Sequence record: OZ035773.1
Strand: one strand, 5' to 3'
DNA length: 64,000 bases
Source of the DNA: Justusliebigvirus VEcB
This document shows positions 48,534 to 60,512 of the stretch, one piece after another. Within the stretch, counting starts at the first letter, position 1. Every line of letters starts with the position of its first letter. The notes under the pieces are model-generated. The model had not been told where the DNA came from and did no database searches. It saw nothing but the letters and a program-made list of their open reading frames with translations. The translations under genes were made by a program, and so were the position numbers.

Positions 48534-48752
48534 TATTTTGAAAATTTTTATTTTTATAAAAAGGGGTGTGGGTTTCATGTACGGAAATTCACCCTCTGCA
48601 CAGTATACCCAGAGTAAGTATTATTCTATACTCTGTTAATAAAGTATTTAATTTGTTTGTTGGACTATGGTATCTGATCTTTAAAAGGCATACTATCTCT
48701 TAACTACTACTTATAACAGAACAGTAAAATCATTTTTATAAAAAGTACAAAA

Positions 48753-48949
48753 TTATTTAAAGTTTTTACAGATTTTTGGGTACAAATTTTGAAAATGAAA
48801 AGTTCAAGTTTGGTCAAAATTATTTAAAGTTTTTGTACGTATTTCTATCCAGATTTTGAAAATGAAAACTTCAATTTTTTAAAAATTCCCCAGTTTATTT
48901 AAAGTTTTTTTGCCTTTTTCCGTAGAAAAATCAAAAATGAAAAGTTCAA
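48753..48949. repeat. Three direct repeats of about 70 bp (iteron-like)
   Basis: Each unit carries TTATTTAAAGTTTTT and TTTTGAAAATGAAAAGTTCAA (48753/48786, 48820/48853, 48894/48931). Confidence 0.7.
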
Positions 48950-48972
48950 TTTCGTGTTTTTATAGGTGTGTT

Positions 48973-49086
48973 AATGAGAATCATTTTCGTTTGTAAATGA
49001 GAATCATTATCATTTAATTATGTAAGTGATAATCATTCTCAGTAAGAGAATGAGAATCATTAGCAAATGAGAATTTTTCTCATTTA
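48973..49086. repeat. Cluster of five AATGAGAATCATT-type 13-mers (Fur-box-like), partly arranged as inverted repeats
   Basis: Copies at 48973, 48996, 49026 (GTGATAATCATTCTC), 49049 and a palindromic AAATGAGAATTTTTCTCATTT at 49066. Confidence 0.7.
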
Positions 49087-49346
49087 GAGAATAACGCGCA
49101 GGGGTGGTGTTTGTCTCGCGCTCCCGTGTCCCCTCGCCATACAATAAGAATAGCATAACCAACAACAAAAGCAAGCGATTATTTTTATCTTTACATTTCT
49201 TTACAAATTTATTTTAGACGAGCCACCGGCGATCAACCTTCCAACCAGTGCCCCCTGGTATGTTAGCCCCGCCTTTACGCCGTGGGGGTGGCGTTTCCTC
49301 TTCTGTATGTAAAACAGTATAAGCCCGATCCCTGGGCTTGTCAAGA

Positions 49347-49613
49347 TTATTTTTTGTTTTCTTGCCAGGATAGGACACCTAACCAAAAATACATGTCGCC
49401 CCGCGCCCCTGGCGGGATCTTGCTTTCCCCGCCGCCACTGCAAGCCCATAGATAACCATTAGCGAACGGATCAAAATGATCTATTTCTTCCACCTTATGA
49501 TCGCCCAGGTTGAGAACGGTTTCAACCTTTAAGCCCGTTGCGCTTGCTACCTGGTGCACCGTGCCGCCTTGCCAGCCTAATGAGTGCATGAGGTGTAGAG
49601 TAGGATTTGTCAT
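49347..49613 (-). CDS. Hypothetical small protein on the minus strand
   Basis: ATG at 49613 with AAAGGG RBS; preceded by a promoter plus stem-loop cassette of the same architecture as the plus-strand array. Confidence 0.45.
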   Translation of the reverse strand: MTNPTLHLMHSLGWQGGTVHQVASATGLKVETVLNLGDHKVEEIDHFDPFANGYLWACSGGGESKIPPGARGDMYFWLGVLSWQENKK

Positions 49614-49635
49614 GGTATCGCCCTTTCTTTGATGT

Positions 49636-49690
49636 GCGCCCTGGTTGGCGCGGTAGAAAGATAATAGCCCTTTCCTTTATAGATAGCAAG
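49636..49690 (-). promoter_or_regulatory. Promoter plus leader stem-loop cassette (minus strand)
   Basis: TTGCTA -35 (49685-49690), 18-nt spacer, TATTAT -10 (49661-49666), GCGCC/GGCGC hairpin (49636-49651). Confidence 0.5.
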
Positions 49691-49724
49691 CAAAAAAGAA
49701 ATGAAAAAAAGATTAAAAAAGGGG

Positions 49725-49753
49725 TTGACGTTCCTCACCTGGTAGCGTATTAT
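49725..49753 (+). promoter_or_regulatory. sigma70-like promoter, divergent from the 49636-49690 cassette
   Basis: TTGACG (49725-49730), 17-nt spacer, TATTAT (49748-49753). Confidence 0.5.
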
Positions 49754-49880
49754 TCATCTTGTCGAGGGGGGCGAGGCACAACGACAATAAACAAAAGGAG
49801 GGCGCAATGTAGGACGGGCAAAGGTGAGGATCTCCACAATCCACCGTCACAATAACATTACTTATAAAAGGTTGATAACG

Positions 49881-49976
49881 ATGATCAAGAAAGAAAACAG
49901 CTTGACGGTTGGAACGATTAACGCTATCATTCTTGCCGTTCCATTTTGGGTTGTAGTTGCGGTTATTATTTTTTAA
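49881..49976 (+). CDS. Small hydrophobic peptide (31 aa), not in the ORF track
   Basis: ATG preceded by AAAAGG; MIKKENSLTVGTINAIILAVPFWVVVAVIIF, a single TM helix. Confidence 0.35.
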   Translation: MIKKENSLTVGTINAIILAVPFWVVVAVIIF

Positions 49977-49984
49977 AAATATTC

Positions 49985-50040
49985 TTGACAACGTTTTTTA
50001 ATCTGATAAGATGTATCACATAGGGCGGCAATAGTGCCGC
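49985..50040 (+). promoter_or_regulatory. Promoter plus leader stem-loop cassette
   Basis: TTGACA, 16-nt spacer, TAAGAT, then CATAGG-GCGGCA-atag-TGCCGC hairpin (50025-50040), SD and ATG at 50065. Confidence 0.65.
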
Positions 50041-50064
50041 TCATAACAGAAGAGAGAAATAATC

Positions 50065-50337
50065 ATGGCATCATATAGCGCATCAATGATCGTAATGGGC
50101 ATCACTGGTAAACCTATGCGCGGTGGCGGATCTTTCGCTAATATTAATATTGATGGGCGTTTATCCCTGGATGCAGCGATCACCGTGGCACGGGAAACAT
50201 TTAAAAAAGAATGCAATTTCAATAAACAAGATTATCTCGGTTTCGCTATTGAAAAAACCGCGCGCTTTGTTGATTATAAAAGCCCAAAAATGGTTGATAC
50301 TACACTAAAAGCGCAAGATGTAGCGTTTTTGCTTTAA
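50065..50337 (+). CDS. Small early protein (90 aa)
   Basis: ORF downstream of the cassette. Confidence 0.55.
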   Translation: MASYSASMIVMGITGKPMRGGGSFANINIDGRLSLDAAITVARETFKKECNFNKQDYLGFAIEKTARFVDYKSPKMVDTTLKAQDVAFLL

Positions 50338-50340
50338 GGC

Positions 50341-50400
50341 TTGACACTGAAAAATAATTTGGTAATATATACCACATAAGGCGGGAAATGGTTTCCCGCC
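50341..50400 (+). promoter_or_regulatory. Promoter plus leader stem-loop cassette
   Basis: TTGACA (50341-50346), TAATAT -10, then perfect hairpin GGCGGGAAA-tgg-TTTCCCGCC (50380-50400). Confidence 0.65.
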
Positions 50401-50425
50401 AGGCCATCAAAGAAAGGGTAATGCA

Positions 50426-50788
50426 ATGAGCAAGCAAATCAATAATATCATGTTAAACCTGGTATCTTTCCGCGACGACGTGAAAAATCTTCCACGTGAT
50501 GCAGTGGATGCACGTATCGAAAGCTATCGCTCACAGATCGCAACGCTACCGCTAAAACGTGATCAACATGCCGCTAATATGATGCTTAATGCTATGCTTA
50601 AAAAGATGATTCAATGTGATCTTACTCTGGCTTATGAATATGCTGGCGATCTCTTTGTAACGTATAGTAAGCCCGTTCCAGGTATGAGCACCACGGAAGA
50701 ATTGCATGCCTTAAATCTGCGACAAGATGCATGGGATAACATGCGCCGTGTTATGGTATGGGTAGAAAGCGGTAAAATTTACGAATAA
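50426..50788 (+). CDS. Small early protein (120 aa)
   Basis: ORF with AAAGGG RBS downstream of the cassette. Confidence 0.55.
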   Translation: MSKQINNIMLNLVSFRDDVKNLPRDAVDARIESYRSQIATLPLKRDQHAANMMLNAMLKKMIQCDLTLAYEYAGDLFVTYSKPVPGMSTTEELHALNLRQDAWDNMRRVMVWVESGKIYE

Positions 50789-50794
50789 AAACGG

Positions 50795-50847
50795 TTGACA
50801 TTGCACTAAAACCTGATAAGCTATCTTAAAGCGGGAATAGTTCCCGC
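50795..50847 (+). promoter_or_regulatory. Promoter plus leader stem-loop cassette
   Basis: TTGACA (50795-50800), 16-nt spacer, TAAGCT, hairpin GCGGGAA-tag-TTCCCGC (50831-50847). Confidence 0.6.
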
Positions 50848-50866
50848 TTACATAGGATAAAACTTT

Positions 50867-51013
50867 ATGAAACAATATGTAATGAGTATTCACACCAAAA
50901 ACGGCGCTACTGTTACGACTCCGGCACGGTTTGCACTTGTAAACCGTTGCAAGAGACTAAAACGAGAGTTAAAAAATAACCGTGCAACGGGCTTTAAACG
51001 CTGGGGAGGATAA
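50867..51013 (+). CDS. Small basic protein (48 aa), not in the ORF track
   Basis: ATG at 50867 downstream of the cassette; stop overlaps the RBS of the next gene. Confidence 0.45.
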   Translation: MKQYVMSIHTKNGATVTTPARFALVNRCKRLKRELKNNRATGFKRWGG

Positions 51014-51015
51014 TC

Positions 51016-51288
51016 TTGTTTTTTCTAAAAGTTTTTGATAATGTGATCGCTTTTGAACATGCTACGACGTTCAACCTGGCGAGATACGCTATCAGGTTTA
51101 AAGATAATGTTTATCCCCGTGCTGGCGGCGGTTACACTATTTTTAATCATCGTAATGCGCAAATAACAGATATAACGAATCCAGATCCTGGGGTGTATCG
51201 CATAGGCTGGCTACCGTCAAAAGACGCGGCAAGCATGTTTAAGGTGTGTAAACTACTAACAGAAGAGGCGAACGAACATGGGGCGTGA
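51016..51288 (+). CDS. Small early protein (90 aa), TTG start
   Basis: TTG start 7 nt after GGAGG. Confidence 0.45.
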   Translation: MFFLKVFDNVIAFEHATTFNLARYAIRFKDNVYPRAGGGYTIFNHRNAQITDITNPDPGVYRIGWLPSKDAASMFKVCKLLTEEANEHGA

Positions 51289-51823
51289 ATATGTGATCCA
51301 GTCCTGGGTAAAGCATGACGCTAATGATCCGCGCATAATACCAGATGACATGATCGATCACATGGTAGGGTATAGCGGGGAGCAGATAGGGAATCGAGCG
51401 GCAAAGAGCAACGGCAACACAAAGGCGCGATCCGTTCGCCCTGGTTGGCTGGTAAATGGTAACGCTGACATTGCAAGCGCCGCAGATCCAAGCGATGACG
51501 CTAAAAATAATCCCTTGTATAGCATTGATCCGGCTTTTAAGGTGTTGGAAGAGTATCCCGCTAAATTAGCCGCACTAGATAAAGCATACGAAGAAAAACG
51601 GGTGGCATGGACTGTATACAACACCGCTAAAATGGTGCTAGATGCAAAATTGATTAAAGCCCAGGAGAAGATCAATAAACTTGTGACCATAGCGCAAGAG
51701 GAAGACCAGGAGGAAGAGGAAGAAATCATTCCTATCCTGGAAGAGGAAGAGATCCAGCCATACATGCCGACGGAAGAGGAAAAAAGACAAGCCTTAAAAA
51801 ATTATAAAAATTGTATTGTGTAA
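51278..51823 (+). CDS. Early protein with acidic C-terminal tail (181 aa)
   Basis: ORF; C-terminus EEDQEEEEEIIPILEEEE. Confidence 0.5.
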   Translation: MGREYVIQSWVKHDANDPRIIPDDMIDHMVGYSGEQIGNRAAKSNGNTKARSVRPGWLVNGNADIASAADPSDDAKNNPLYSIDPAFKVLEEYPAKLAALDKAYEEKRVAWTVYNTAKMVLDAKLIKAQEKINKLVTIAQEEDQEEEEEIIPILEEEEIQPYMPTEEEKRQALKNYKNCIV

Positions 51824-51825
51824 GG

Positions 51826-51854
51826 CTTGACATATGCAAACAAGCCCCGTAATA
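51826..51854 (+). promoter_or_regulatory. sigma70-like promoter (first of a tandem pair) with degenerate leader hairpin
   Basis: TTGACA (51826-51831), 17-nt spacer, TAATAT (51849-51854); imperfect GC-rich inverted repeat follows. Confidence 0.5.
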
Positions 51855-51902
51855 TATACCACATAGAGCGGGGCAACGCCTCAAAGGTGAAATAAAAAAT
51901 CA

Positions 51903-51930
51903 CTTGACACCTGAAATCAGTAAGCTATAA
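51903..51930 (+). promoter_or_regulatory. sigma70 consensus promoter (second of a tandem pair)
   Basis: TTGACA (51903-51908), 16-nt spacer, TATAAT (51925-51930). Confidence 0.6.
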
Positions 51931-51968
51931 TGCTTATATAAATTAAAGCGTTACTAAGGAATAAAATC

Positions 51969-52334
51969 ATGGCTAAAAATATCAATGTCTCTGCTTATGC
52001 TACCCTGGCTAACACTGCTAAAATTGAACTATCCAGCATTGAAGCGGTACATATTAGCGCCCGTCGCTGGTTTCAAAAGTCTTATGGTAATACTTATTTC
52101 TCTTTGATGGTTGACGTTGAGATCGGCGGTAAACTGATTGAGGTCGTTAACGTTCCGTTTCAATATGGTTATGGTGATCATTTTGATACCGTTGCCCTAG
52201 AAGAGTTTAGCAAGGTTATCAACCTGGAAGGTAAAGACTTTTCAAATTATGCTTACCTTTCCCGTTTTTGCCGTGATAATGGGATCGCTGTATACAGTCA
52301 TGCAAGCGATGTTAAACGTAAAAAAGATTTATAA
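51969..52334 (+). CDS. Small early protein (121 aa)
   Basis: ORF with AAGGA RBS. Confidence 0.55.
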   Translation: MAKNINVSAYATLANTAKIELSSIEAVHISARRWFQKSYGNTYFSLMVDVEIGGKLIEVVNVPFQYGYGDHFDTVALEEFSKVINLEGKDFSNYAYLSRFCRDNGIAVYSHASDVKRKKDL

Positions 52335-52340
52335 AAAGTA

Positions 52341-52404
52341 TTGACAGCACGAATAAAAAGCGTAAAATGTTTTATATCAGGACGGGGGAACGGTTTCCCC
52401 TCCT
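52341..52404 (+). promoter_or_regulatory. Promoter plus leader stem-loop cassette
   Basis: TTGACA (52341-52346), 16-nt spacer, TAAAAT, then GGGGGAA-cgg-TTTCCCC hairpin (52381-52404). Confidence 0.55.
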
Positions 52405-52423
52405 AACAAAGAGAGAAATAAAA

Positions 52424-52606
52424 ATGGCTAAATGCACTATCTGTAAGAAAGAAATAGTATTAGTTCCAAGTGCCCGTGAACGTGCCGCTAAGTTTGGTGG
52501 CAAACCGTCAGACTATACGAAAATGTTTACTACCCATGCAGCTTGTCAAGTAGCAAAACGTTCAGAAGAAAGCGTAAAATTAATGCGTAAACTTTCCAAA
52601 AAATAA
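52424..52606 (+). CDS. Small basic protein (60 aa)
   Basis: ATG at 52424 (MAKCTICKK...) after GAGAGA; the track ORF's upstream extension would overlap the promoter. Confidence 0.5.
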   Translation: MAKCTICKKEIVLVPSARERAAKFGGKPSDYTKMFTTHAACQVAKRSEESVKLMRKLSKK

Positions 52607-52608
52607 TA

Positions 52609-52667
52609 TTGACAAAGTATTTTATTACTATATAATGGTTTACATCGAGAGCGGGAATAGTTCCCGC
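52609..52667 (+). promoter_or_regulatory. Promoter plus leader stem-loop cassette
   Basis: TTGACA (52609-52614), 16-nt spacer, TATAAT (52631-52636), hairpin GCGGGAA-tag-TTCCCGC (52651-52667). Confidence 0.65.
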
Positions 52668-52691
52668 CTCACTGAAAAAGAGATTAACATC

Positions 52692-52931
52692 ATGGCTAAA
52701 TCTAAAATGTACAACGGTCACAAAAACAAAACTCATTGGAATGTAAGCCTTTGGATCAACAACGATGAAGGTTTTTATAATCTTGCGCGTGAATTTATCG
52801 CAGCTAACACCAATAAGAATGACGCAGCGCGGGATATGATGTTATTTCTTGAAAGTATGGATCAAGATAAAACGCCAGACGGTTACAAGTTCAGTAAAAC
52901 TGCAATCCGTGCCGCTATGGTTGGAATGTAA
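52692..52931 (+). CDS. Small early protein (79 aa)
   Basis: ATG at 52692 (MAKSKMYNG...). Confidence 0.5.
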   Translation: MAKSKMYNGHKNKTHWNVSLWINNDEGFYNLAREFIAANTNKNDAARDMMLFLESMDQDKTPDGYKFSKTAIRAAMVGM

Positions 52932-53027
52932 AGGAGACATAAAAATGAAACATCGTTCGACCTATCTGACAAAACGTTTTAGCTTAGATCATAAATTAGG
53001 CTATTACGGAAGAAATAGAAAATAATT

Positions 53028-53087
53028 TGACAACGTTTAAAATTAGTGTAAGATGTATCACGTAGGGCGGGAAATGGTTTCCCGCCA
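53028..53087 (+). promoter_or_regulatory. Promoter plus leader stem-loop cassette
   Basis: TTGACA (53028-53033), 16-nt spacer, TAAGAT, hairpin GGCGGGAAA-tgg-TTTCCCGCC (53067-53087). Confidence 0.65.
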
Positions 53088-53108
53088 AATCAAAGAAAGG
53101 TTATCATT

Positions 53109-53336
53109 ATGGCTATCGTTATTGTTCGCGTATCCGGTACGGTTGGGATCTCCCAGGTAGTAGCAGTTATCACCGAGAAGAAAGGGGATGATCTTCACTC
53201 CTCCTTGAATAGCTGGGCGGTCGCTAACTTTGGGCAATGGTCGAGCGTTGAGTACATCGAAGCCTACCAGGTGCCAACGATTAGCCTAACCGATCTAAAT
53301 GTTGATCGCTTGTTGTGCCTGGATGGATTAAACTAA
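53109..53336 (+). CDS. Small early protein (75 aa)
   Basis: ORF with AAAGG RBS. Confidence 0.5.
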   Translation: MAIVIVRVSGTVGISQVVAVITEKKGDDLHSSLNSWAVANFGQWSSVEYIEAYQVPTISLTDLNVDRLLCLDGLN

Positions 53337-53344
53337 AAATAATC

Positions 53345-53401
53345 TTGACAAGATAACTAAAATCAGTAAAATGTAATGCATAGGGCGGCAATAGTGCCGC
53401 C
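53345..53401 (+). promoter_or_regulatory. Promoter plus leader stem-loop cassette
   Basis: TTGACA (53345-53350), 16-nt spacer, TAAAAT, hairpin GGCGGCA-atag-TGCCGCC (53384-53401). Confidence 0.65.
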
Positions 53402-53423
53402 CCTAGTGAGAGAGATTATCAAA

Positions 53424-53639
53424 ATGGCTAATATCCGCACCTTGTTAAAAAATGCAAAGCAAGTTTTATTTTCAGATGACGAATATTTTAATAAAGATAT
53501 TACAGGCGTGAAAAATCTTAAAGATGTGAAAGATGTGATAGGTATTCGCGGATCTTTACGTAAAGGTGACACATACGGTAACAAGGTGCAATATAAATTA
53601 GATCAGTTTTATGATTTTACTTTGACAATTATTTCATAA
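53424..53639 (+). CDS. Small early protein (71 aa)
   Basis: ATG at 53424 (MANIRTLLK...). Confidence 0.5.
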   Translation: MANIRTLLKNAKQVLFSDDEYFNKDITGVKNLKDVKDVIGIRGSLRKGDTYGNKVQYKLDQFYDFTLTIIS

Positions 53640-53645
53640 AACTAC

Positions 53646-53706
53646 TTGCAAACCTGGTAAAATAAAGTAAACTATATTCATTAAGGCGGTGGAATAGCCC
53701 ACCGCC
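53646..53706 (+). promoter_or_regulatory. Promoter plus leader stem-loop cassette
   Basis: TTGCAA -35, TAAACT -10 candidate, hairpin GGCGGTGG-aatagc-CCACCGCC (53685-53706). Confidence 0.5.
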
Positions 53707-53729
53707 TAACAAAGAGAAGAGGAAACATC

Positions 53730-53900
53730 ATGATCACTTTCGCTACCCGTGAAGCCGCTCGCAACGTTGCACGTAAAGTTAACGCCGCCAACCTGGGCGC
53801 TACGCTTAAAGCCCCGGTGAAAGATGAATCAGGAAAATGGATCTTTCCTGGTCTGCGTCACGCTGATAAGCTGGGAACATTAACGTTAAAAAATAAATAA
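53730..53900 (+). CDS. Small basic protein (56 aa), not in the ORF track
   Basis: ATG at 53730 after GAGAAGAGGAAA; MITFATREAARNVARKV... Confidence 0.45.
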   Translation: MITFATREAARNVARKVNAANLGATLKAPVKDESGKWIFPGLRHADKLGTLTLKNK

Positions 53901-53907
53901 TATTCGC

Positions 53908-53966
53908 TTGACAGTAGCATCATTTATAAGTAAAGTAACAACAACGGCGGGAAATGGTTTCCCGCC
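53908..53966 (+). promoter_or_regulatory. Promoter plus leader stem-loop cassette
   Basis: TTGACA (53908-53913), 17-nt spacer, TAAAGT, hairpin GGCGGGAAA-tgg-TTTCCCGCC (53946-53966). Confidence 0.65.
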
Positions 53967-53986
53967 ATCAATAAAGAGATAAGATT

Positions 53987-54346
53987 ATGAAATCAGTAAA
54001 AGCAATTAAAACTTACATTGTGTCGGCTATTTCTTTTGATGGTACTACAACCGAAAAAGAAAAAATCACCGAACTGATGCGCCGTTTTAACTCTGAATAC
54101 TGGTATCAATCTAATCGTGATCGTTATAATAACAATATGGTACAAGCTGTTAAAAGCTGGTTACAAGGTTTACCGTCAGACATCAATATCGCTTTTAATT
54201 ATAACGAGATCGATCAATTATTAATTGAATGGAAGTACATAAAAGAAACAAGCAAAGAAACAACCGTTACCCGTGAGCGGGAAAATTATTGGTTATATAT
54301 TGCAAGCATGATCGTAACTTTGGCAAAATATCATAACGTAGCGTAA
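53987..54346 (+). CDS. Small early protein (119 aa)
   Basis: ORF downstream of the cassette. Confidence 0.55.
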   Translation: MKSVKAIKTYIVSAISFDGTTTEKEKITELMRRFNSEYWYQSNRDRYNNNMVQAVKSWLQGLPSDINIAFNYNEIDQLLIEWKYIKETSKETTVTRERENYWLYIASMIVTLAKYHNVA

Positions 54347-54360
54347 TCGAGAGGAAAAAC

Positions 54361-54498
54361 ATGAACGCATCACAGCAGATCGAAAAATTCAACCGCAACA
54401 AAGCGCGTAAAGATTGGAACGAAGAGATCACCAAAAAAGGCGACAAGCGGAACAAAACAAAAAGAGATCGCAGCACAAAAAGATACTGGAACGAATAA
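54361..54498 (+). CDS. Small highly basic protein (45 aa), not in the ORF track
   Basis: ATG after GAGAGGAAAAAC; Lys/Arg-rich; followed by a terminator. Confidence 0.4.
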   Translation: MNASQQIEKFNRNKARKDWNEEITKKGDKRNKTKRDRSTKRYWNE

Positions 54499-54503
54499 CA
54501 AAA

Positions 54504-54528
54504 AAGGGCGCAATAAGCGCCCTTTTAG
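54504..54528 (+). terminator. Rho-independent terminator
   Basis: GGGCGC-aataa-GCGCCC hairpin followed by TTTT. Confidence 0.6.
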
Positions 54529-54616
54529 CTTATATAGAGGCTTGTTACCCATAGGCAATGGTAACGCCAGGATAAGCCTATAAACCACGTTAGACAGCTT
54601 TACAGGAGCTTTAAAA

Positions 54617-54799
54617 ATGAAATTAGAAGAAATAAGCAAGGCACTAGCCCAGGGGCAAAGGTTAAACGCCCGTTATCGTGATCAATATGGCTTCATAACC
54701 AGCGGCGTGATCCTGGGGATTGAAGGCAATAAGATTTTTATTGACACGTTGAAAAACGTTGTATATAGTGACAATATAATCTCAATAAAACATATATGA
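54617..54799 (+). CDS. Small early protein (60 aa)
   Basis: ORF with AGGAGC RBS. Confidence 0.45.
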   Translation: MKLEEISKALAQGQRLNARYRDQYGFITSGVILGIEGNKIFIDTLKNVVYSDNIISIKHI

Positions 54800-55209
54800 G
54801 GCAAGAAATGAAAAAATTATTGATCGCTGGTTTAATCTCTTTTGGCATGGTTGGAACATCTAGCGCGGCGATATCCTCCACAGTAGCAGAATTAAGCGCC
54901 GTTGATGCAATGGAAAACGTCATGATCATTAATAATGCGATCCCCGATGAAATCATGGAGGATTCACACATGATCGCTTATGGTGCTGTTACACAACTAA
55001 CGGCAAAAATAGATAAATCTATTGTTAATGGCTTAAATGAAGATGTACCATGTGAAATTATTACCAGTGTGCTGACTACTCAAAATTTTACGCCGTGGCT
55101 AAAAAGTATTCAAAAGGTGCATAGTGCAGCCGCAGATCGTAGCAATGAAAAACTAGTGTCAGCACTTGCAACGTATACCCTGGCAAAATGCACTGAAATA
55201 AAAGATTGA
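54796..55209 (+). CDS. Secreted small protein (137 aa)
   Basis: N-terminal signal peptide MKKLLIAGLISFGMVGTSSAA. Confidence 0.5.
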   Translation: MRQEMKKLLIAGLISFGMVGTSSAAISSTVAELSAVDAMENVMIINNAIPDEIMEDSHMIAYGAVTQLTAKIDKSIVNGLNEDVPCEIITSVLTTQNFTPWLKSIQKVHSAAADRSNEKLVSALATYTLAKCTEIKD

Positions 55210-55234
55210 CAACATAGAAAGCACGTTATAAGAT
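55206..55234 (+). promoter_or_regulatory. sigma70-like promoter (no leader hairpin)
   Basis: TTGACA (55206-55211), 17-nt spacer, TAAGAT; AAGGAG RBS downstream. Confidence 0.55.
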
Positions 55235-55256
55235 ACACACAACAAAGGAGAACTAC

Positions 55257-55559
55257 ATGAACGGCATAGCTAAAACGTTTTTTCTTTTTTCTGGTGTAAA
55301 TGATCCATCAATAAAAGTCGATAGTGTAAAAGAAAACAATACTATCACCGCTAAATTGTTTCAAGATGAAACAAATAACGTGCTAATCATTAATCTTAAA
55401 GAAATAACTAAAGGTTATTATACTATTGCTTACCATGCGATCTATCATGCTGGTACTAGCGAGGAAGTGCAAACAAGCAACAACGAAAGCGCGGCGCTAC
55501 CTGGTGATCTGGTGCTGGGCGTTATCAGTTTAATTGTCAATGATTTTTTTAAGGAGTAA
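55257..55559 (+). CDS. Small early protein (100 aa)
   Basis: ORF with AAGGAG RBS. Confidence 0.55.
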   Translation: MNGIAKTFFLFSGVNDPSIKVDSVKENNTITAKLFQDETNNVLIINLKEITKGYYTIAYHAIYHAGTSEEVQTSNNESAALPGDLVLGVISLIVNDFFKE

Positions 55560-55888
55560 AACCATGCCCTATTTACATTTATTTTTCGGGATCTTATTGT
55601 CAGGATCTTTTTTCTTCTGTATACTTGTTTCTATTGTAAACCACGTTTTAAGACATTAAGGAAACAGCATGAAAATTATTCCCGTACAATATAGCGTAAT
55701 AAATCCAGCATACGAGGAAGGAAGGAAAACAAGCATGGCTTTATGTTATATTGCTACTATAGCCATGTTGTTATATATTGTGTTTTAATAGGTTTTATAG
55801 TTGTACGCTTTAAAGGCTTGACAATTTTTTGTTATGCTTTAAACTATATCTTGAAAACGGCAAAGGCCGCAAACAAAAGGGTAAAATT

Positions 55889-56212
55889 ATGAAATCTGTG
55901 ATCGGTGTTTATTTGGATAACTCTGATTTTTTCTATCATCGCGCTCGTTTCCTTGATGCGATTGAAATGATAGAATCAGGCTTTAAAGAGTATCGCCTTG
56001 CACATGATGACCTAGAAGCATTACAGGGCAATAGTGTTTTTACATTGCAAGCGAAAGCACTATGCAAAAGCCGGATCGACATTGCGAGCAAAAAGATAGA
56101 ACGCGGCATGTCCTGGTTACGCACCGCAGAAATCAACATGGGGCAATGGTACGGCGAAAACTTAGAAAATAAACTCACTTTTGTAAATGTAGAAAATATT
56201 AAAGATTATTGA
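55889..56212 (+). CDS. Small early protein (107 aa)
   Basis: ATG at 55889 (MKSVIGV...) downstream of a TTGACA at 55818. Confidence 0.5.
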   Translation: MKSVIGVYLDNSDFFYHRARFLDAIEMIESGFKEYRLAHDDLEALQGNSVFTLQAKALCKSRIDIASKKIERGMSWLRTAEINMGQWYGENLENKLTFVNVENIKDY

Positions 56213-56274
56213 TTGACAGCACACCTGATAAGGAGTATATTGTATCTCATAGAGCGGGGAAATGGTTTCCCCGC
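56213..56274 (+). promoter_or_regulatory. Promoter plus leader stem-loop cassette
   Basis: TTGACA (56213-56218), 17-nt spacer, TATATT, hairpin GCGGGGAAA-tgg-TTTCCCCGC (56254-56274). Confidence 0.65.
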
Positions 56275-56294
56275 CTTAACAGAAGAGATAAGAT

Positions 56295-56579
56295 ATGAAG
56301 ATCACAAAAGCACTTTCCAACTATGCAGCACGTCGCGGATTATGCTTATCCGTTGAAAACTTAGGGAAAGAAGATTTTTTGTGCTTTTGGGAGCTTGAGA
56401 ATGATAATGAGTGGATCTTCTCTTATTCTATCTGCGAAGATCAAAACGGTTGTTTATTAACCTGGCGCGGTAATATCTATCTACCGGAAGAAATCAAAGA
56501 AGAATTGCCAGGCACGATCATGACTGAGAAACAGCTTAAGGAAGTGATTAATTTTGTAGGGCAAAACATTAAAAAATAA
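56295..56579 (+). CDS. Small early protein (94 aa)
   Basis: ORF downstream of the cassette. Confidence 0.55.
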   Translation: MKITKALSNYAARRGLCLSVENLGKEDFLCFWELENDNEWIFSYSICEDQNGCLLTWRGNIYLPEEIKEELPGTIMTEKQLKEVINFVGQNIKK

Positions 56580-56580
56580 T

Positions 56581-56637
56581 TTGACACTAGGCAAACAACG
56601 TAGTAAAGTTTATCACATAGGGCGGCAATAGTGCCGC
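56581..56637 (+). promoter_or_regulatory. Promoter plus leader stem-loop cassette (leader identical to the 50013-50053 copy)
   Basis: TTGACA (56581-56586), 17-nt spacer, TAAAGT, hairpin GCGGCA-atag-TGCCGC (56622-56637); 41-nt leader identical to the cassette at 49985. Confidence 0.65.
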
Positions 56638-56660
56638 TCATAACAGAAGAGAAACAAATC

Positions 56661-56831
56661 ATGATCCCAACTATGTTTTATGTATCGCGCAAAGGTCACA
56701 ATATTTTTTGGTCTGAAGATTTAAATGAAGCCATGACGTTTGCCCGTGATCGTGTTGCTATTGGTGGCGTTAATATCACCGTAACCGATGAAAACGGCAT
56801 TGAATACTATAACGGCGACGATGAAGAGTAA
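56661..56831 (+). CDS. Small early protein (56 aa)
   Basis: ATG at 56661 (MIPTMFYVSRKG...). Confidence 0.45.
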   Translation: MIPTMFYVSRKGHNIFWSEDLNEAMTFARDRVAIGGVNITVTDENGIEYYNGDDEE

Positions 56832-56838
56832 TTAATGA

Positions 56839-56859
56839 GGCGGGGGAGTATTCCCCGCC
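56839..56859 (+). promoter_or_regulatory. Leader stem-loop without an obvious consensus promoter
   Basis: GGCGGGG-gagtatt-CCCCGCC hairpin 20 nt upstream of the ATG at 56879. Confidence 0.4.
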
Positions 56860-56878
56860 GTCAATAAAGAGGTAAATC

Positions 56879-57148
56879 ATGAAAATATCTTTGGACGTTG
56901 CAATCAAGGCCATCGAATCCGGTTACACCCTGGTAAAAGATGATAAGGCTAAAATAGTGCATCATGTTAACAAGGAAACAGGCGAAAGCATGATCACATA
57001 TAAAGCCGCCTACTTTCTCCAATCAGTAGCAGATCCGCGCGTACAGCGCCAGGTCACGGCGGCTATTGCTAAAAAATTATGTGCTTTACAGGGCACAAGT
57101 TTTAACGAGATCGCCCCGTGTTTTGACTGGTCGAGCTTGAAAAAATAG
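56879..57148 (+). CDS. Small early protein (89 aa)
   Basis: ORF with AGAGG RBS. Confidence 0.5.
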   Translation: MKISLDVAIKAIESGYTLVKDDKAKIVHHVNKETGESMITYKAAYFLQSVADPRVQRQVTAAIAKKLCALQGTSFNEIAPCFDWSSLKK

Positions 57149-57149
57149 T

Positions 57150-57211
57150 TTGATAATACGCGGTTATCTGGTAAAGTGTACGACATAGGGCGGGGCAATA
57201 AGGCAACGCCC
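57150..57211 (+). promoter_or_regulatory. Promoter plus leader stem-loop cassette
   Basis: TTGATA -35, 16-nt spacer, TAAAGT, then CATAGGGCGG...CGCCC imperfect hairpin (57188-57211). Confidence 0.5.
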
Positions 57212-57230
57212 ATTAATGAGGGGTAGAATC

Positions 57231-57335
57231 ATGTTAGAGAAAATTTTCACGGTTGTAATAGTGGGCCTGGCGTTATCGGTTGGATTGGTTGCAACTATGG
57301 CTAACATGATCCTATCTTCCCACGGTATCGGCTAA
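57231..57335 (+). CDS. Small hydrophobic peptide (34 aa), not in the ORF track
   Basis: ATG after GAGGGG; MLEKIFTVVIVGLALSVGLVATMANMILSSHGIG, a single TM helix. Confidence 0.35.
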   Translation: MLEKIFTVVIVGLALSVGLVATMANMILSSHGIG

Positions 57336-57349
57336 AAGAGAAACACAAC

Positions 57350-57736
57350 ATGAAAACAGAAATCATTATTGAAATCATCAACGGTTATAAAGAAGCCTTT
57401 ATTTTTGCCGAACCAGCGACGGATCACAATGGGGAATATATTGAGAATCTAGACGATTATGATTTTTCTCCTAGCGCCCTGAAACGTATTACCAGCGATG
57501 TGACCGCCTTTTGTGATGCCAATGATGCCGCTATCTCTGAGGCAATGAGCGACGGCGCTACAGCAAACCAGATCGGGAATGATTTACATTTTACCAGTAA
57601 CGGTCACGGCGTAGGTTTTTGGGATCGCCCTGAAATATACACTACTAACACCGCCAACCGTTTAACTGATGCAGCTAAATTAATGCCATTGGTGCATGCT
57701 TACATTGGTGAAGATAATTTGATTTATATTGACTAA
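57350..57736 (+). CDS. Small early protein (128 aa)
   Basis: ORF with AGAGAAA RBS. Confidence 0.5.
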   Translation: MKTEIIIEIINGYKEAFIFAEPATDHNGEYIENLDDYDFSPSALKRITSDVTAFCDANDAAISEAMSDGATANQIGNDLHFTSNGHGVGFWDRPEIYTTNTANRLTDAAKLMPLVHAYIGEDNLIYID

Positions 57737-57741
57737 AAGTG

Positions 57742-57800
57742 TTGACACCGATCCCCAATATGTTATTATTTACCACGTAGGCGGGAAATGGTTTCCCGCC
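57742..57800 (+). promoter_or_regulatory. Promoter plus leader stem-loop cassette
   Basis: TTGACA (57742-57747), 16-nt spacer, TATTAT, hairpin GGCGGGAAA-tgg-TTTCCCGCC (57780-57800). Confidence 0.65.
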
Positions 57801-57823
57801 AGGTAATCAAAAAGGTAAATACT

Positions 57824-58213
57824 ATGCGCAACCTGGTTTCTGTTTCTAACGTTGAAAAATTTCAATCCTTACAGGGTATCGTTAACAACGTAGCGCCTTT
57901 TTTAGTAAACGGCTTGATCGCAAAGATGAAAAATAAACATCATGCGGCATGGTCTGCTTACTGCTTTGATAATGATGAAAAAGCGGCTGAAATGATGTTA
58001 GATATGCTGTTAGATAGTGTAGAAACATCTTTACCGGAAAACATCGCAGAAGAGATCACCTATCGTTATAATATGGCGATCACTTACCAGGAGGTTGCGC
58101 AATTCAACATGATGGATGATGACGAACAACAGGATCAGGAAATGTTCTGGGAGTATGCGGATCGTCAATCAGCTTTTGATGAAAAATTAGCGATGTATTA
58201 TAACGAATATTAA
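57824..58213 (+). CDS. Early protein (130 aa), acidic
   Basis: ATG at 57824 (MRNLVSVSNVEK...) with AAAAGG RBS. Confidence 0.5.
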   Translation: MRNLVSVSNVEKFQSLQGIVNNVAPFLVNGLIAKMKNKHHAAWSAYCFDNDEKAAEMMLDMLLDSVETSLPENIAEEITYRYNMAITYQEVAQFNMMDDDEQQDQEMFWEYADRQSAFDEKLAMYYNEY

Positions 58214-58227
58214 TACACGGTAAAAGA

Positions 58228-58254
58228 AAGGGGCGCACTAAGCGCCCTTTTTTG
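58228..58254 (+). terminator. Rho-independent terminator
   Basis: GGGCGC-actaa-GCGCCC hairpin followed by TTTTTTG. Confidence 0.65.
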
Positions 58255-58400
58255 TATTCTTTTTCACAATGGAAGCGACACGTAAAGAATAGGCGTAAAG
58301 GTGGCGTAAAACCATCTAAAACCGACTGTAACCGCTTAAACAAGGTAGGAATGATTAATCACCTTACCAGGATGAAAAAGCTGTTATAAAGCTATCTAGG

Positions 58401-58697
58401 GTGTTTAAAGGTGACTTGGTTGAAGTTAGAACAACCGAAGGTTATAGCGACGATTATAAATGCGAGATTCATTTACACAACTGGTACACGGGTAAAACTT
58501 ATGCGCTGAATCATGCGTTTATCGGCAAGGTTGAATATAGAGAAATGATCGACGAAGAAACCGGGCAAGATTTTAGCGATCATGTTTATATTCGTTCAGA
58601 AACATTAGCCGAACGTTTGATCGAGAAAATGAAAGCAAAAAATAAAATTAATTTAGCTCATTGGATTGATATAACAAACGATCCAGCTTATAAGTAA
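58401..58697 (+). CDS. Hypothetical small protein (98 aa)
   Basis: GTG-start ORF; followed by a terminator. Confidence 0.4.
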   Translation: MFKGDLVEVRTTEGYSDDYKCEIHLHNWYTGKTYALNHAFIGKVEYREMIDEETGQDFSDHVYIRSETLAERLIEKMKAKNKINLAHWIDITNDPAYK

Positions 58698-58712
58698 ATA
58701 ACATTTCATACC

Positions 58713-58739
58713 AGGGCGCTTATTGCGCCCTTTCTTTTT
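58713..58739 (+). terminator. Rho-independent terminator
   Basis: AGGGCGC-ttatt-GCGCCCT hairpin followed by TTCTTTTT. Confidence 0.65.
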
Positions 58740-58944
58740 ACCTAAATAAAGATGATAGCTTTTACCTATCAAAAACGTTCACCGAAAAAAGTGAATAGAT
58801 CGCGGTATCGAGCTAATCAAGGAGCAGATGAACAACCATACCATGAAGATCATAAGGCGTTTACAGCGTGTTTTAGACCGTTTATTTTTAATTTCTTCAT
58901 GCAACTATAGGACAAAAACAGTCTTTTTCTTGTCTTTCCTCTTA

Positions 58945-59017
58945 AATGATAATCATTCTTATTTATAGCTGATTATTTATGCAATAAACTGCATAATGCA
59001 ATAATGATAATCATTCT
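58945..59017. repeat. Two copies of AATGATAATCATTCT (Fur-box-like 13-mer)
   Basis: Copies at 58945-58959 and 59003-59017. Confidence 0.65.
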
Positions 59018-59387
59018 TAACTTAAGACCATCTAACTTATAAAATAATAAGTTATCTAACTAAATTAAAGCTAATTATCTTACTTTTATTTATAACATAC
59101 TGTTACTATCTTATTGATAACCTTATATTAAACAACAATAATCAATGTAAATCATTACTAAGCTAACTATAATCTATCTAACCATTAAAACTATAACTAT
59201 AATCTATCGAATTGTTGCACAAAGTAACTATTAAATTGTTAGTAACATTACTAAATAATTCACATCTTATCTATTTATGATCTAATCTTTACCTCCCTAT
59301 TTATTACCTAAATAACCATTTCATGTAGTAATCATTTCATACAATAACTATAACAAGAAATATAATTCGCAAGCGTATCATTAGCAG

Positions 59388-59520
59388 CCTATGCCGGACA
59401 CATAGGCGGCTAATAATAACGCAACTACACCCCCCCACATAATAACTATCGCCGATAGTTATTATTTGTGTTTATGTAGCTTGCAACAATTGCAAGCGCA
59501 ACAATATACATGGTATATTG
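59388..59520. repeat. Cluster of four palindromes
   Basis: GCCTATG...CATAGGC (59388-59407); AATAACTATC-gcc-GATAGTTATT (59441-59463); GCTTGCAA-caa-TTGCAAGC (59479-59497); CAATATAC-atg-GTATATTG (59502-59520). Confidence 0.7.
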
Positions 59521-59618
59521 TATTCCCTTACATTGTTGCGGTGCGTTATTATTAGCTAATGTTTAGAACATTGGCTATAATATAAGCTGCATATAATAAG
59601 CTATACAATAATAAACAT

Positions 59619-59654
59619 AATGAATAATGACACTGAAATGAATAATGACACTGA
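59619..59654. repeat. Tandem 18-bp direct repeat (AATGAATAATGACACTGA x2)
   Basis: Two exact adjacent copies. Confidence 0.7.
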
Positions 59655-59793
59655 TGATCATAATGCGCCACCCTCCAGGGGCGCTATGTGAACACAAAGA
59701 AATCTTTCTTGTCAAGAAAAATATCATCATTATTGCGCAAAATTATTTACATCTGAATAGATGATTTTTCATACTATTGCCCCCATATAACTT

Positions 59794-59854
59794 ACTATTT
59801 GTTGCAATGTATTCCCCTATTTGTTGAGCATAGTTATAGCCTATTTGTTGAGCC
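59794..59854. repeat. Three copies of CTATTTGTTG
   Basis: At about 59795, 59817 and 59841, spaced 22-24 bp apart. Confidence 0.6.
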
Positions 59855-59926
59855 TACTTTCTTAAAAGCGCAATAAATCAGAATTATCTTGATTTTTAGG
59901 TAGTTTTATAGTATAGAAAATATGCA

Positions 59927-59942
59927 AATGATAATCATTATC
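59927..59942. promoter_or_regulatory. Fur-box-like site (AATGATAATCATTATC)
   Basis: 16/16 identity to positions 4-19 of the E. coli Fur box consensus GATAATGATAATCATTATC. Confidence 0.4.
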
Positions 59943-60118
59943 AGCTATCTTCCACGGGTGGCACTATTTCACACCAGATCATTTCATTTGGCAAGGTGTA
60001 GATAGATGTTTAGACTTGCCAAGTTATTGATTTACTTAGAATTTATCTGTTTTGTTGTAAGTAGAGCCTTTTTTGCTCAGAAAATAATCAAAAGTCTTAT
60101 AAGTCATTGAATGATAAT

Positions 60119-60151
60119 GCAAATGATAATTATTCTCATTGATATTTGAGG
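60119..60151. repeat. Degenerate tandem Fur-box-like motifs
   Basis: GAATGATAATGCAAATGATAATTATTCTCATTG. Confidence 0.5.
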
Positions 60152-60512
60152 GGGACGGTCGGGAAAAATCGGGGGGCGCTGAAAATCGCGTTAAGCACCT
60201 CTCGCAAGCGAGCAGTATTTTGCGGCAAGTTATTGATATTATTGACTTTACGCTTATGAAAAGGGGGTGTGTCGAAATAAATCGGGTATACCGGAAAATT
60301 TTTGTGGCATAGATATTTATTTGTCTATATTATGTACAAAGGGGTGTGTTAAAAATATTAGGTATATATAGAATAATTGATAGGGAAATCCTATACTAAT
60401 TCCTCCATTAATGATGTTTCTATGTTGCTGTTCTTGTAATAGATGAAAAGACGCTGTATGATGTGTGGCATGAAACGTAATCCTACAACGTAATCTTATA
60501 AAGGAGTCTGAT

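Follow-up and report, generated by a model that had tools for sequence, protein, structure and literature searches.

In this study, we examined the non-coding DNA near the right end of a phi92-like Escherichia coli phage, in a window (the whole stretch of DNA analysed) of 64,000 nucleotides. It contains nine 19-bp palindromes, AATGA(G/T)AAT-N-ATT(C/A)TCATT, whose sequence marks them as true operators of the host ferric uptake regulator, Fur, and which Fur probably binds. We tentatively favour a model, to which as a whole we give slightly less than an even chance, where these Fur sites act in cis as elements of the DNA ends and of a module border.

Five of the palindromes lie in 48973-49084 (region 1) and the others at 58945, 59003, 59927, and 60122 (region 2), all nine strong sites being confined to two gene-free regions that amount to 2.4 kb of a genome of ~148 kb. 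The sole further window site at >=15/18 (36466, within a 937-aa ORF) looks like a chance match, and a box at >=15/18 is absent from the remaining ~85 kb of the sister genome. An earlier note on this DNA had described the two regions as essentially non-coding, with at least nine motif copies; indeed, no ORF longer than 57 aa was found in either region, most relatives' records carry no annotated gene there, and ATGAKAATCATTMT with up to two mismatches has nine distinct in-region copies (48974, 48997, 49026, 49050, 49067, 58946, 59004, 59928, and 60123; 22 strand-hits vs 4.4 expected), including four exact ones (48997, 58946, 59004, and 59928; 0 expected). The best copy it had picked out, 59927-59942 (AATGATAATCATTATC), is identical to positions 4-19 of GATAATGATAATCATTATC, which the complete 19-mer at 59924 matches at 17/19 positions. 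The inverted pairs it saw near 49026-49061 are also present, a trivial consequence of each box being itself palindromic. Both regions are poor in G+C (21-31%) and abound in other repeats, as suits functionless chance matches in AT-rich spacer; yet for most thresholds the observed counts were reached in 0/2000 dinucleotide shuffles of the two AT-rich regions alone. This enrichment check, which the earlier note had proposed, excludes AT-richness as the explanation and, together with box conservation across subfamilies while flanks diverge, rules out the chance reading, whose probability is practically nil.

The phage boxes match the Fur consensus at 15-17 of 19 positions, with a perfect 7-1-7 core at 59927, and each forms a 9-1-9 palindrome with extra NAT(A/T)AT hexamers alongside. 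Clusters of box sites show 3- and 6-bp offsets, as described for Fur clusters, and on phased-hexamer layouts Fur binding has been described as dimers and higher-order polymers (PMC2189734). When a matrix derived solely from the nine phage copies was scanned over E. coli K-12 600-640 kb (40 kb), the top ten matches all fell in the fepA-fes, fepD-entS, and fepB-entC regions, Fur-controlled enterobactin promoters that make up 726 bp of the 40 kb; the best host site scored 25.3 bits vs 23.5-32.2 bits for the phage sites. Likewise, BLAST of the region around the second terminal-repeat box (60122) against 5426 E. coli genomes retrieved the fhuE promoter, with 81-84% identity over 43 nt in 4555/5426 genomes. 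The commonest phage half-site, GAGAAT (52% G), differs from the Fur optimum GATAAT, but a GAG half-site is present in known Fur operators too (e.g. fhuE). Given the 7-1-7 core, the 6-bp hexamer phasing, the ent/fep cross-scan, and the fhuE match, the motif is a Fur box, and the resemblance first remarked on in the earlier note is genuine. The phage boxes share with E. coli Fur operators (fepA-fes, fepB-entC, fhuE) the 19-bp consensus, the 7-1-7 core, phased NAT(A/T)AT runs, and sites that overlap one another at 3- or 6-bp offsets. They differ in having no recognisable strong promoter overlap and mostly no downstream gene, and in lying, in arrays of up to five at 23-29-bp spacing, in the terminal repeat and long untranslated spacers of a virulent phage.

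Region 1 and the genes that follow it comprise:
48732..48952, three tandem AT-rich repeats of 67-75 bp (TTATTTAAAGTTTTT ... TTTTGAAAATGAAAAGTTCAA), immediately upstream of the boxes
48973..49084, five Fur-type palindromes forming the region-1 array (48973-91, 48996-49014, 49025-43, 49049-67, and 49066-84)
49085..49340, highly conserved GC-rich non-coding element adjoining the last box, including TCTTTACATTTCTTTACAAA (49188-49207) and ACCGGCGATCAACCTT
49347..49613, minus strand, small gene of 88 aa (phi92 gp224 family, phrog_19316) between the conserved element and the early-gene array
49725..57769, plus strand, box-free right-terminal array of small genes, about 23 in number, in which about 19 strong sigma-70-like (TTGACA) promoter matches occur

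The region-1 boxes, spaced by 23, 29, 24, and 17 bp and scoring 23.5-32.2 bits in the phage-derived matrix, lie ~11 kb (~7.5% of the genome) from the right end, in a conserved untranslated spacer between the remaining genome and the terminal block of small early genes. All related lineages examined have the array, in versions of 1-5 boxes. Box positions are conserved, between diverging flanks, in Phapecoctavirus, Klebsiella, and Citrobacter phages, and Vequintavirinae retain one box in the ~4 kb examined around region 1. In most IMG/VR loci with the full element the proximal box lies 148-152 nt from the conserved anchor, the exceptions being two loci without a box at >=14/18 and one whose sole box is 200 nt from the anchor. 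The distance from the array to the genome end varies (about 9.3% in Schickermooser, from coordinates). The neighbouring tandem repeats vary between lineages, whereas the box does not: their sequence is lineage-specific, with non-homologous analogous repeats at the same place in phAPEC8, KP2025, Tr1, GEC_vB_MG, and W70 (where the box scores 14/18). The adjoining GC-rich element keeps about 80-89% identity even in Vequintavirinae; neither thermodynamic structure (z = +0.9 and +0.8) nor useful covariation in its alignment was found.

Region 2 is the physical genome end, as mapping of the phi92 terminal repeat onto the window reveals; this terminus with its 343-bp repeat was missed by the earlier note, as was the T5 injection-stop counterpart treated below. 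Its features are:
58945..59021, box pair (58945-63 and 59003-21, at 58-bp spacing) enclosing a TATGCA-N-TGCATA palindrome
59380..59580, multi-hairpin element of ~200 nt, with an outer stem (59409-23 / 59542-56) around two 27-bp hairpins
59851..60193, direct terminal repeat (DTR) of 343 bp, one collapsed copy here, placed by aligning DTR-L/DTR-R of the phi92 record to the window
59927..59945, DTR box 1, with TGATAAT-C-ATTATCA as its perfect 7-1-7 core; the left genome end is 77 bp away
60122..60140, DTR box 2, in the phased run TTGAAT GATAAT GCAAAT GATAAT T ATTCTC ATTGAT
60261..60348, plus strand, pair of GGGGTGTG(T) motifs (60261-71 and 60338-48), situated in the left-end leader a little beyond the DTR, with a third copy at 48560-70

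The DTR boundaries in the window, GTTG^AGCC and GTTA^AGCA, are conserved in three genera, and a 342-bp DTR was reported for BME3 (PMC12210895). Schickermooser has a box at the DTR position equivalent to box 1 (+75), and box 2 ends 53 bp from the right DTR boundary. The box pair, ~0.9 kb inside the right-end terminal repeat, has the same 58-bp spacing in phi92 and KP2025 and is partly kept in Schickermooser. In a packaged genome the boxes number eleven, since each terminal-repeat copy contributes two to the five of region 1 and the pair near the right end. The multi-hairpin element (z = -7.4 and -7.5 on the two strands) has an outer stem maintained through compensatory changes in Schickermooser and KP2025. 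By eye on the alignment, a weak conserved promoter-like site, TTGATT-17-TATAGA, stands just upstream of DTR box 1; it is absent from the promoter-scan list. Three copies of AAAGGGGTGTG had also been proposed as a candidate phage-specific promoter or binding motif; those at 48560 and 60338 are exact, while the third has a mismatch and starts at 60261, not 60259, and three copies were reached in 4/100 shuffles. GGTATA follows 12-13 nt after each of the GGGGTGTG(T) motifs at 60261-71 and 60338-48. phi92 conserves these motifs too, and Schickermooser and KP2025 do so in part; support for a phage-specific promoter role of AAAGGGGTGTG is weak.

How such operators serve the phage may be read in several ways. 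Under classical iron-responsive repression a box would lie over a promoter and adjacent transcripts would appear only at low iron, the candidate transcripts being end-proximal leaders, one from the conserved element, or those of the enclosed module. In three genera, the TTGATT-17-TA-rich site seen by eye stops about 10 bp short of DTR box 1; in all lineages aligned, a -10-like (C/G)AGAAT comes after the proximal region-1 box; and the DTR box 2 region resembles the fhuE promoter. Yet promoter scans at the boxes were not significant (11 sites vs 6.2 expected in region 1, 16 vs 14.2 in region 2; none convincingly overlapping), candidate -35 elements at the boxes are not conserved between lineages, and most boxes have no following gene. 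The earlier suggestion of iron-responsive control of the enclosed module is not borne out, since none of its about 19 promoter matches overlaps a box and the boxes lie >=0.6 kb away, behind other elements. Classical repression of the enclosed genes seems less likely, and we regard this kind of repression in general as unlikely. Titration is another reading, according to which the boxes mainly pull Fur off host promoters as the genome replicates. Hundreds of genome copies with 9-11 strong operators would then relieve the repression of iron uptake, of RyhB-mediated iron sparing, and of nrdHIEF, which would supply the iron-dependent ribonucleotide reductases of the phage. The family encodes NrdAB and NrdDG (PMC12210895), and a plasmid-based Fur titration assay shows the principle (PMC2189734). 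The sites are many, of very high affinity as predicted from sequence, and away from promoters, and region-1 copy number runs from 1 to 5 between lineages, as if dose outweighed geometry. Nevertheless, box positions are fixed relative to terminase cut sites and the conserved element across subfamilies, Vequintavirinae keep that single box near region 1, and the T5 array stands exactly at the injection-stop point, a placement that a pure decoy does not need; a mainly titrating role seems unlikely.

Alternatively, the boxes might be bound by a dimeric protein of the phage itself (replication initiator, small terminase, partition protein, or early repressor), their likeness to Fur sites being coincidence or mimicry. 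Indeed, 19-bp palindromes that recur roughly every 23-29 bp next to tandem repeats call origin iterons to mind, such as the four dyad-symmetric 19-mers of lambda ori; 2 kb upstream is an AAA+ ATPase weakly similar to DnaC and clamp loaders, two boxes are near terminase cut sites, and the GAGAAT half-site is off the Fur optimum. However, the phage-only matrix selects host Fur operators with near-perfect specificity, phased hexamers beyond the palindrome are characteristic of Fur, a scan of 28 neighbouring proteins gave no DNA-binding domain, and no Fur homologue was found in the phage genome. Moreover, the unrelated T5-like siphoviruses that carry the same motif would need a shared protein, and none is seen among the T5 pre-early proteins, for which no detectable homologue was found in the phi92-like phage. 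A phage binder, also considered in the earlier note, is distinctly unlikely.

In T5, Repeat Region 3 / the injection stop signal, with its "direct repeat C copies 1-4" and "palindromes E-I" (AY587007, 9468-9640), is the same box array. It scores 20-30 bits with the window-derived matrix, is present in T5-like SP01 also, and has 22 nt of identity (T5 9575-9596) to the region-1 array. Both phages have arrays of 5-7 boxes at 23-46 bp spacing in a gene-free region of >1 kb, at 7.9% (T5) vs ~7.5% of the genome length from an end, bounding a terminal block of small early genes and flanking a GC-rich hairpin; TCTTTACATTTCTTTACAAA is common to both lineages, this 20-mer being 100% identical in SP01 and 95% in T5. 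On the other hand, the T5 array is inside a 10-kb terminal repeat, whereas the repeat here is 343 bp, and lies by paired DnaA boxes and a site-specific nick, whereas no DnaA boxes were found here. Two-step transfer is not known for phi92-like phages, and no A1 or A2 homologues were found in the phi92-like phage. In the T5 literature, as far as accessible, the palindromes are not named Fur boxes. T5 plates on fur mutants, and a role of Fur in T5 is therefore probably modulatory rather than essential.

Other phages offer partial parallels. The stx1 promoter has a Fur box that controls a cargo gene on a temperate phage. The same arrangement is described for sitABCD on lambdoid phages (PMC6969025). 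These too are host Fur operators on phage DNA, but single ones over iron-cargo promoters, whereas the boxes described here are many, without a cargo gene, and at structural landmarks of a virulent phage. The IHF site I1 in lambda cosB serves a host factor in DNA-end processing; like the DTR boxes, it offers an abundant host DNA-binding protein a site close to terminase cuts and at a set distance from them. A perfect Fur box also stands beside a cosN-like GC-rich run in an O157:H7 lambdoid prophage. However, DNA bending by Fur for terminase is unsupported, and the region-1 array is 11 kb from the ends.

Overall, we suggest that Fe2+-Fur would load onto the boxes upon DNA entry into the cell, building bulky nucleoprotein arrays at three fixed places: the terminal repeat, ~0.9 kb inside the right end, and the region-1 spacer ~11 kb (7.5%) inside. 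Those in the terminal repeat would be 77 bp and about 55-70 bp away from the two terminase cut sites. From position, we infer action in cis because the boxes stay clear of strong early promoters and are accompanied by other conserved non-coding elements; neither a convincing promoter overlapping most boxes nor proof of an origin or of two-step entry was found. The boxes may serve as architectural or boundary elements, sensitive to iron, at the DNA ends and module border, affecting entry or holding of incoming DNA, weak end-proximal promoters, replication, or packaging, with Fur depletion during DNA replication as a plausible side effect. The same array is present in the long-unexplained injection-stop region of T5.

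The boxes considered here are nine Fur-box-like palindromes in two gene-free regions of Justusliebigvirus VEcB, five in region 1, the spacer with a box array at 48973-49084, and four in region 2, the DNA holding the boxes at 58945, 59003, 59927 and 60122. Both regions match E. coli myoviruses of the genus Justusliebigvirus (phi92-like, Stephanstirmvirinae), being 97-98% identical to them over region 1 and 91-95% over region 2. The 13-mer pattern reported in an earlier note on this sequence is present in four exact copies, against zero expected, and the copies that it counted, at least nine, were recovered as nine distinct ones with at most two mismatches, all within the two regions that it had named. 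A better description of the motif is the 9-1-9 palindrome AATGA(G/T)AAT-N-ATT(C/A)TCATT, that is, a Fur 7-1-7 unit with at least 1 bp added per side. Agreement with the Fur consensus GATAATGATAATCATTATC amounts to 15-17 of 19 positions at 48970, 48993, 49022, 49046, 59000, 59924 and 60119, with lower scores at 58942 (14/19) and 49063 (13/19); a perfect 7-1-7 core, TGATAAT-C-ATTATCA, is found at 59929-59943, and cores one mismatch away from TGATAAT-N-ATTATCA at 48998, 49027 and 60124. In the overall tally, eight sites reach 15-17/19 and one 14/19. Base composition does not account for these numbers: when the two AT-rich regions alone were shuffled with their dinucleotides preserved, the observed box counts were never reached; in region 1, for example, five sites of at least 14/18 compare with a shuffle mean of 0.04, a count attained in 0 of 2000 shuffles. 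Elsewhere in the window the single comparable site, 36466, falls within a 937-aa ORF and was treated as chance, and the part of a sister genome outside the window (~85 kb) holds no site of at least 15/18. Thus, all nine strong sites of the ~148-kb genome lie in ~2.4 kb of gene-free DNA.

Judged by all available sequence tests, the boxes are Fur-type operators, an identity that has three independent lines in its favour and is borne out more strongly than the earlier note could know. A matrix was built from the nine window copies, picked by the phage's own repeat and not by the Fur consensus, and scanned over positions 600,000-640,000 of E. coli K-12; all ten of the best matches in these 40 kb fall in the fepA-fes, fepD-entS and fepB-entC regions, the classic Fur-controlled divergent enterobactin promoters, which together total 726 bp. 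The best host site scores 25.3 bits, and the phage sites, being the training set, 23.5-32.2 bits. An unbiased BLAST search of 5426 complete E. coli genomes, with 56 nt around the box at 60122-60140 as query, returned one conserved chromosomal locus, present in 4555 of them: the promoter region of fhuE, which codes for a siderophore receptor under Fur repression, with 81-84% identity along 43 nt. In the fhuE locus, the best match to the phage matrix is the promoter site. The same search with the region 1 array gave short, uninformative matches only. Phased NAT(A/T)AT hexamers with overlapping sites 3 or 6 bp apart have been reported as a signature of Fur site clusters (PMC2189734). Here, secondary matches occur at -6 or -3 bp beside six of the nine boxes, and the box at 60122 is a run of four forward and three reverse hexamers, kept in three genera.

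We infer that host Fe2+-Fur probably binds the boxes. A binder encoded by the phage itself is less likely and less economical. A tblastn search of the window and of a sister sequence covering the whole genome, with an E. coli Fur sequence as query, found no Fur homologue (E > 3), and Pfam and PHROGs detected no DNA-binding domain among 28 neighbouring proteins, recognising only NADAR, an AAA+ ATPase, a CapR/T5orf172 endonuclease and a gp30.8-like protein. The 'predicted transcription regulator' of phi92, gp005, has no recognisable domain. The layout of region 1 bears on the same choice. It runs from the end of a NADAR-domain gene through three lineage-specific tandem repeats, the box array and a very conserved GC-rich element of ~250 bp to a small minus-strand gene, an order found identically in phAPEC8, the Klebsiella phage KP2025, Citrobacter phage Tr1 and Vequintavirinae. 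The tandem repeats are entirely different between lineages while the box is unchanged, as would be expected of repeats bound by a phage protein that co-evolves with them, and of a box recognised by something that all hosts share. In most of the 16 IMG/VR loci with the conserved element, the proximal box stands 148-152 nt from a fixed anchor, and two of these loci have an 18/18 Fur palindrome; the exceptions are two loci without a box of at least 14/18 and one whose sole box is 200 nt from the anchor. Single boxes are seen in Salmonella phage GEC_vB_MG (one perfect AATGAGAATCATTCTCATT) and E. coli phage W70 (one GGTGAGAATTATTCTCATT). An IMG/VR scan for the degenerate palindrome gave more than 120 loci, a count that is not interpretable; positions close to the edge of a locus may be artefacts of storage.

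Some marks of a replication origin are present in region 1, namely the tandem repeats, a G+C content of 23% and a gene for an AAA+ ATPase lying 2 kb upstream; of the features of an iteron origin, neither DnaA boxes nor a recognisable initiator was found, nor a skew signal that could be told apart from that of transcription. DnaA boxes (TTWTNCACA) number zero in either region and 12 in the whole window against 11.5 expected, which is chance level. The ATPase gene, which may be of relevance should region 1 be an origin, and an RNA element elsewhere in the window are as follows:

45607-46734, plus strand, AAA+ ATPase (PF00004; weak PHROG similarity to a clamp loader and a DnaC-like loader), its KP2025 counterpart being annotated 'replicative helicase'
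31586-31860, minus strand, group I intron (Rfam RF00028, 72.5 bits)

A structured RNA in the conserved element (49093-49310) was considered and rejected (z = +0.9 and +0.8, with a covariation term of about zero on both strands), and Rfam, at gathering and permissive thresholds, and a tRNA search returned nothing meaningful in either region.

Between the two regions lies the enclosed module (49725-57769), an array of ~23 small genes without assigned function, whose tested products fall in PHROG families of unknown function. From 44047 to the end of the window, every gene is on the plus strand. The module has ~19 strong TTGACA-type sigma-70-like promoter matches on the plus strand, about one per small gene and two of them perfect (12/12), none of which overlaps a box. 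Promoter scans over both box regions were at or near background and conserved -35/-10 pairs were not found over most boxes; sigma-70 promoters over the boxes are, on these scans, not convincing. The best candidate near a box, picked by eye and weak, is TTGATT-17-TATAGA, which ends ~10 bp upstream of the box at 59927-59945 and has a -35 conserved in three genera. Given module promoters without boxes and box regions near background, the iron-responsive control of the module suggested by the earlier note is unsupported.

The boxes of region 2 belong to the physical ends of the genome. The record of phi92, a member of the same genus, annotates left and right direct terminal repeats (DTRs) of 343 bp, which alignment places within region 2, and a terminal repeat of 342 bp was reported independently for another genus member (PMC12210895). 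In the virion, region 2 is thus divided as follows:

58700-59850, untranslated tail of the right end
59851-60193, DTR, present at both ends
60194-60512, leader of the left end

Two boxes are inside the DTR, one 77 bp from the left cut and the other ending 53 bp from the right cut. A further pair, with a spacing of 58 bp, lies ~0.9 kb inside the right-end repeat. In Schickermooser (Phapecoctavirus), a repeat of ~329 bp has boxes at +75 and +254, and in KP2025 the pair spaced by 58 bp and the two boxes of the repeat are all retained, despite diverged flanks.

Other elements accompany the genome ends. Both DTR boundaries read GTTR^AGC (GTTG^AGCC on the left, 59847-59853; GTTA^AGCA on the right, 60190-60196), and conservation in phi92, Schickermooser and KP2025 makes this a candidate terminase cleavage motif; the left boundary motif CCTATTTGTTGAGC (59840) has a second copy 24 bp upstream, at 59816. 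About 300 bp inside the right-end repeat, a multi-hairpin element of ~200 nt (59380-59580; z = -7.4 on one strand and -7.5 on the other) has an outer stem, GCTAATAATAACGCA / TGCGTTATTATTAGC, which compensatory changes preserve in Schickermooser (..AAGCCA / TGGCTT..) and KP2025 (..AACACA / TGTGTT..); the element might work as RNA or as a DNA cruciform. The tail further contains an exact 18-bp tandem duplication (59619-59654, AATGAATAATGACACTGA twice), apparently a single variant copy in phi92 and alia. A second motif, AAAGGGGTGTG, had been proposed in three copies as a promoter or binding motif; two are exact, whereas the third has a mismatch and stands at 60261, not 60259, and the motif is weak, as many copies arising in 4 of 100 shuffles. 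The left-end leader has, at 60261-60380, two GGGGTGTGT-N12/13-GGTATA units followed by ATAATTGATAGG, kept in phi92 and, in part, in two further genera; with GGGGTGTG at the place of a -35, these may represent a phage-specific promoter class.

A counterpart of the region 1 array is found in T5-like siphoviruses. One contig recovered by the IMG/VR scan for the degenerate palindrome is identical in sequence to SP01, a T5-like Salmonella phage, and carries seven boxes in a row, ~29-35 bp apart. T5 has its own array at 9468-9640 (AY587007), labelled 'direct repeat C copies 1-4' and 'palindromes E to I', with boxes of 20-30 bits under the window-derived matrix; T5 9575-9596 is identical, at 22 of 22 nt, to window 48994-49015. 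The T5 array is the untranslated Repeat Region 3 with the injection stop signal, and lies directly left of the calculated shear point of first-step transfer (9618) and of the 7.9% nick (9661). Likewise, the five boxes of region 1 are in ~1.5 kb without annotated forward genes, the T5-type stop signal being characterised by more than 1 kb of gene-free DNA. In both, the array bounds a terminal block of small early genes: it is 11.1-11.2 kb from the right end (60193) in the window, ~7.5% of ~148 kb, and at 7.85% in T5, 7.8% in phi92 and ~9.3% in Schickermooser. The two systems also differ. Paired DnaA boxes in the inverted repeats IRC/IRD are a feature of T5 (Davison 2020) which the window regions lack; the terminal repeat is ~10 kb in T5 but 343 bp here; and tblastn found no homologue of the T5 pre-early proteins (dmp, A1, A2 and others; E > 0.29 for A1/A2). 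Further boxes occur in T5 at 228-250, a strong one ~230 bp from the left end inside dmp, and at 6019-6040 in inverted repeat C. The phi92/rV5-like and T5-like phages also have in common TCTTTACATTTCTTTACAAA (window 49188-49207), 100% identical in SP01 (L082 8538-8557) and 95% in T5 Repeat Region 1 (AY587007 5076-5095). On the other strand this element reads GTAAA-N5-GTAAA, which is the CpxR box consensus; BLAST of the element against E. coli gave short, uninformative matches only. Moreover, in a lambdoid prophage of E. coli O157:H7 strain 4276 (L059 1795-1830), the DNA that separates the lysis genes from the small terminase gene contains a perfect Fur palindrome, TTGCAAATGATAATCATTATCATTT, ~35 bp from a cosN-like GGGCGGGCGGGCG run and with an ATTTCTTTACAAA motif ~190 bp downstream, a Fur box beside a DNA-end site in a third, unrelated phage type.

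The boxes are fixed at the genome ends and at the module border, conserved across two myovirus subfamilies and common to T5-like siphoviruses. Their role in cis can be proposed with less confidence than Fur binding: if selected for such a role, Fur nucleoprotein arrays would be boundary or architectural elements for DNA-end events and for the border of the terminal early module, not repressors of the enclosed genes. Titration of Fur during replication, either as a side effect or as an alternative, is quantitatively plausible, with eleven operators per packaged genome replicating to many copies, a few thousand Fur molecules per cell, and iron-dependent reductases encoded by the phage family. 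Going beyond a boundary role, the arrays might supply the conserved host-factor component of a checkpoint in DNA entry that T5-like siphoviruses and rV5/phi92-like myoviruses share. The terminal ~7.5% of phi92-like genomes would then be delivered or held first, as in T5 first-step transfer, and the stop would be marked or stabilised by Fur on the array and the end-proximal boxes, making Fur the host protein that has long been sought there. We consider this reading improbable; if true, it would tie the progress of infection to the iron state of the cell.

Fur boxes are textbook host operators; what is new is their context, with the terminal repeat, the deep conservation and the T5 injection-stop counterpart, which makes an old question testable. 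No paper searched describes virulent phages with conserved Fur-box arrays at their physical ends and at the borders of modules. Our literature search, mostly outside subscription journals, turned up no report that connects Fur boxes with phi92-like, rV5-like or T5-like phages, and Fur is mentioned neither in the T5 injection-stop preprint nor elsewhere in the searched literature on the injection stop signal. If Fur really loads at the boxes, a lytic phage reads or exploits the iron sensor of its host at the DNA level, which would be relevant to phage therapy, since iron is scarce at infection sites. The T5 link matters most: seeing the T5 palindromes as Fur boxes makes the injection-stop question experimentally simple.
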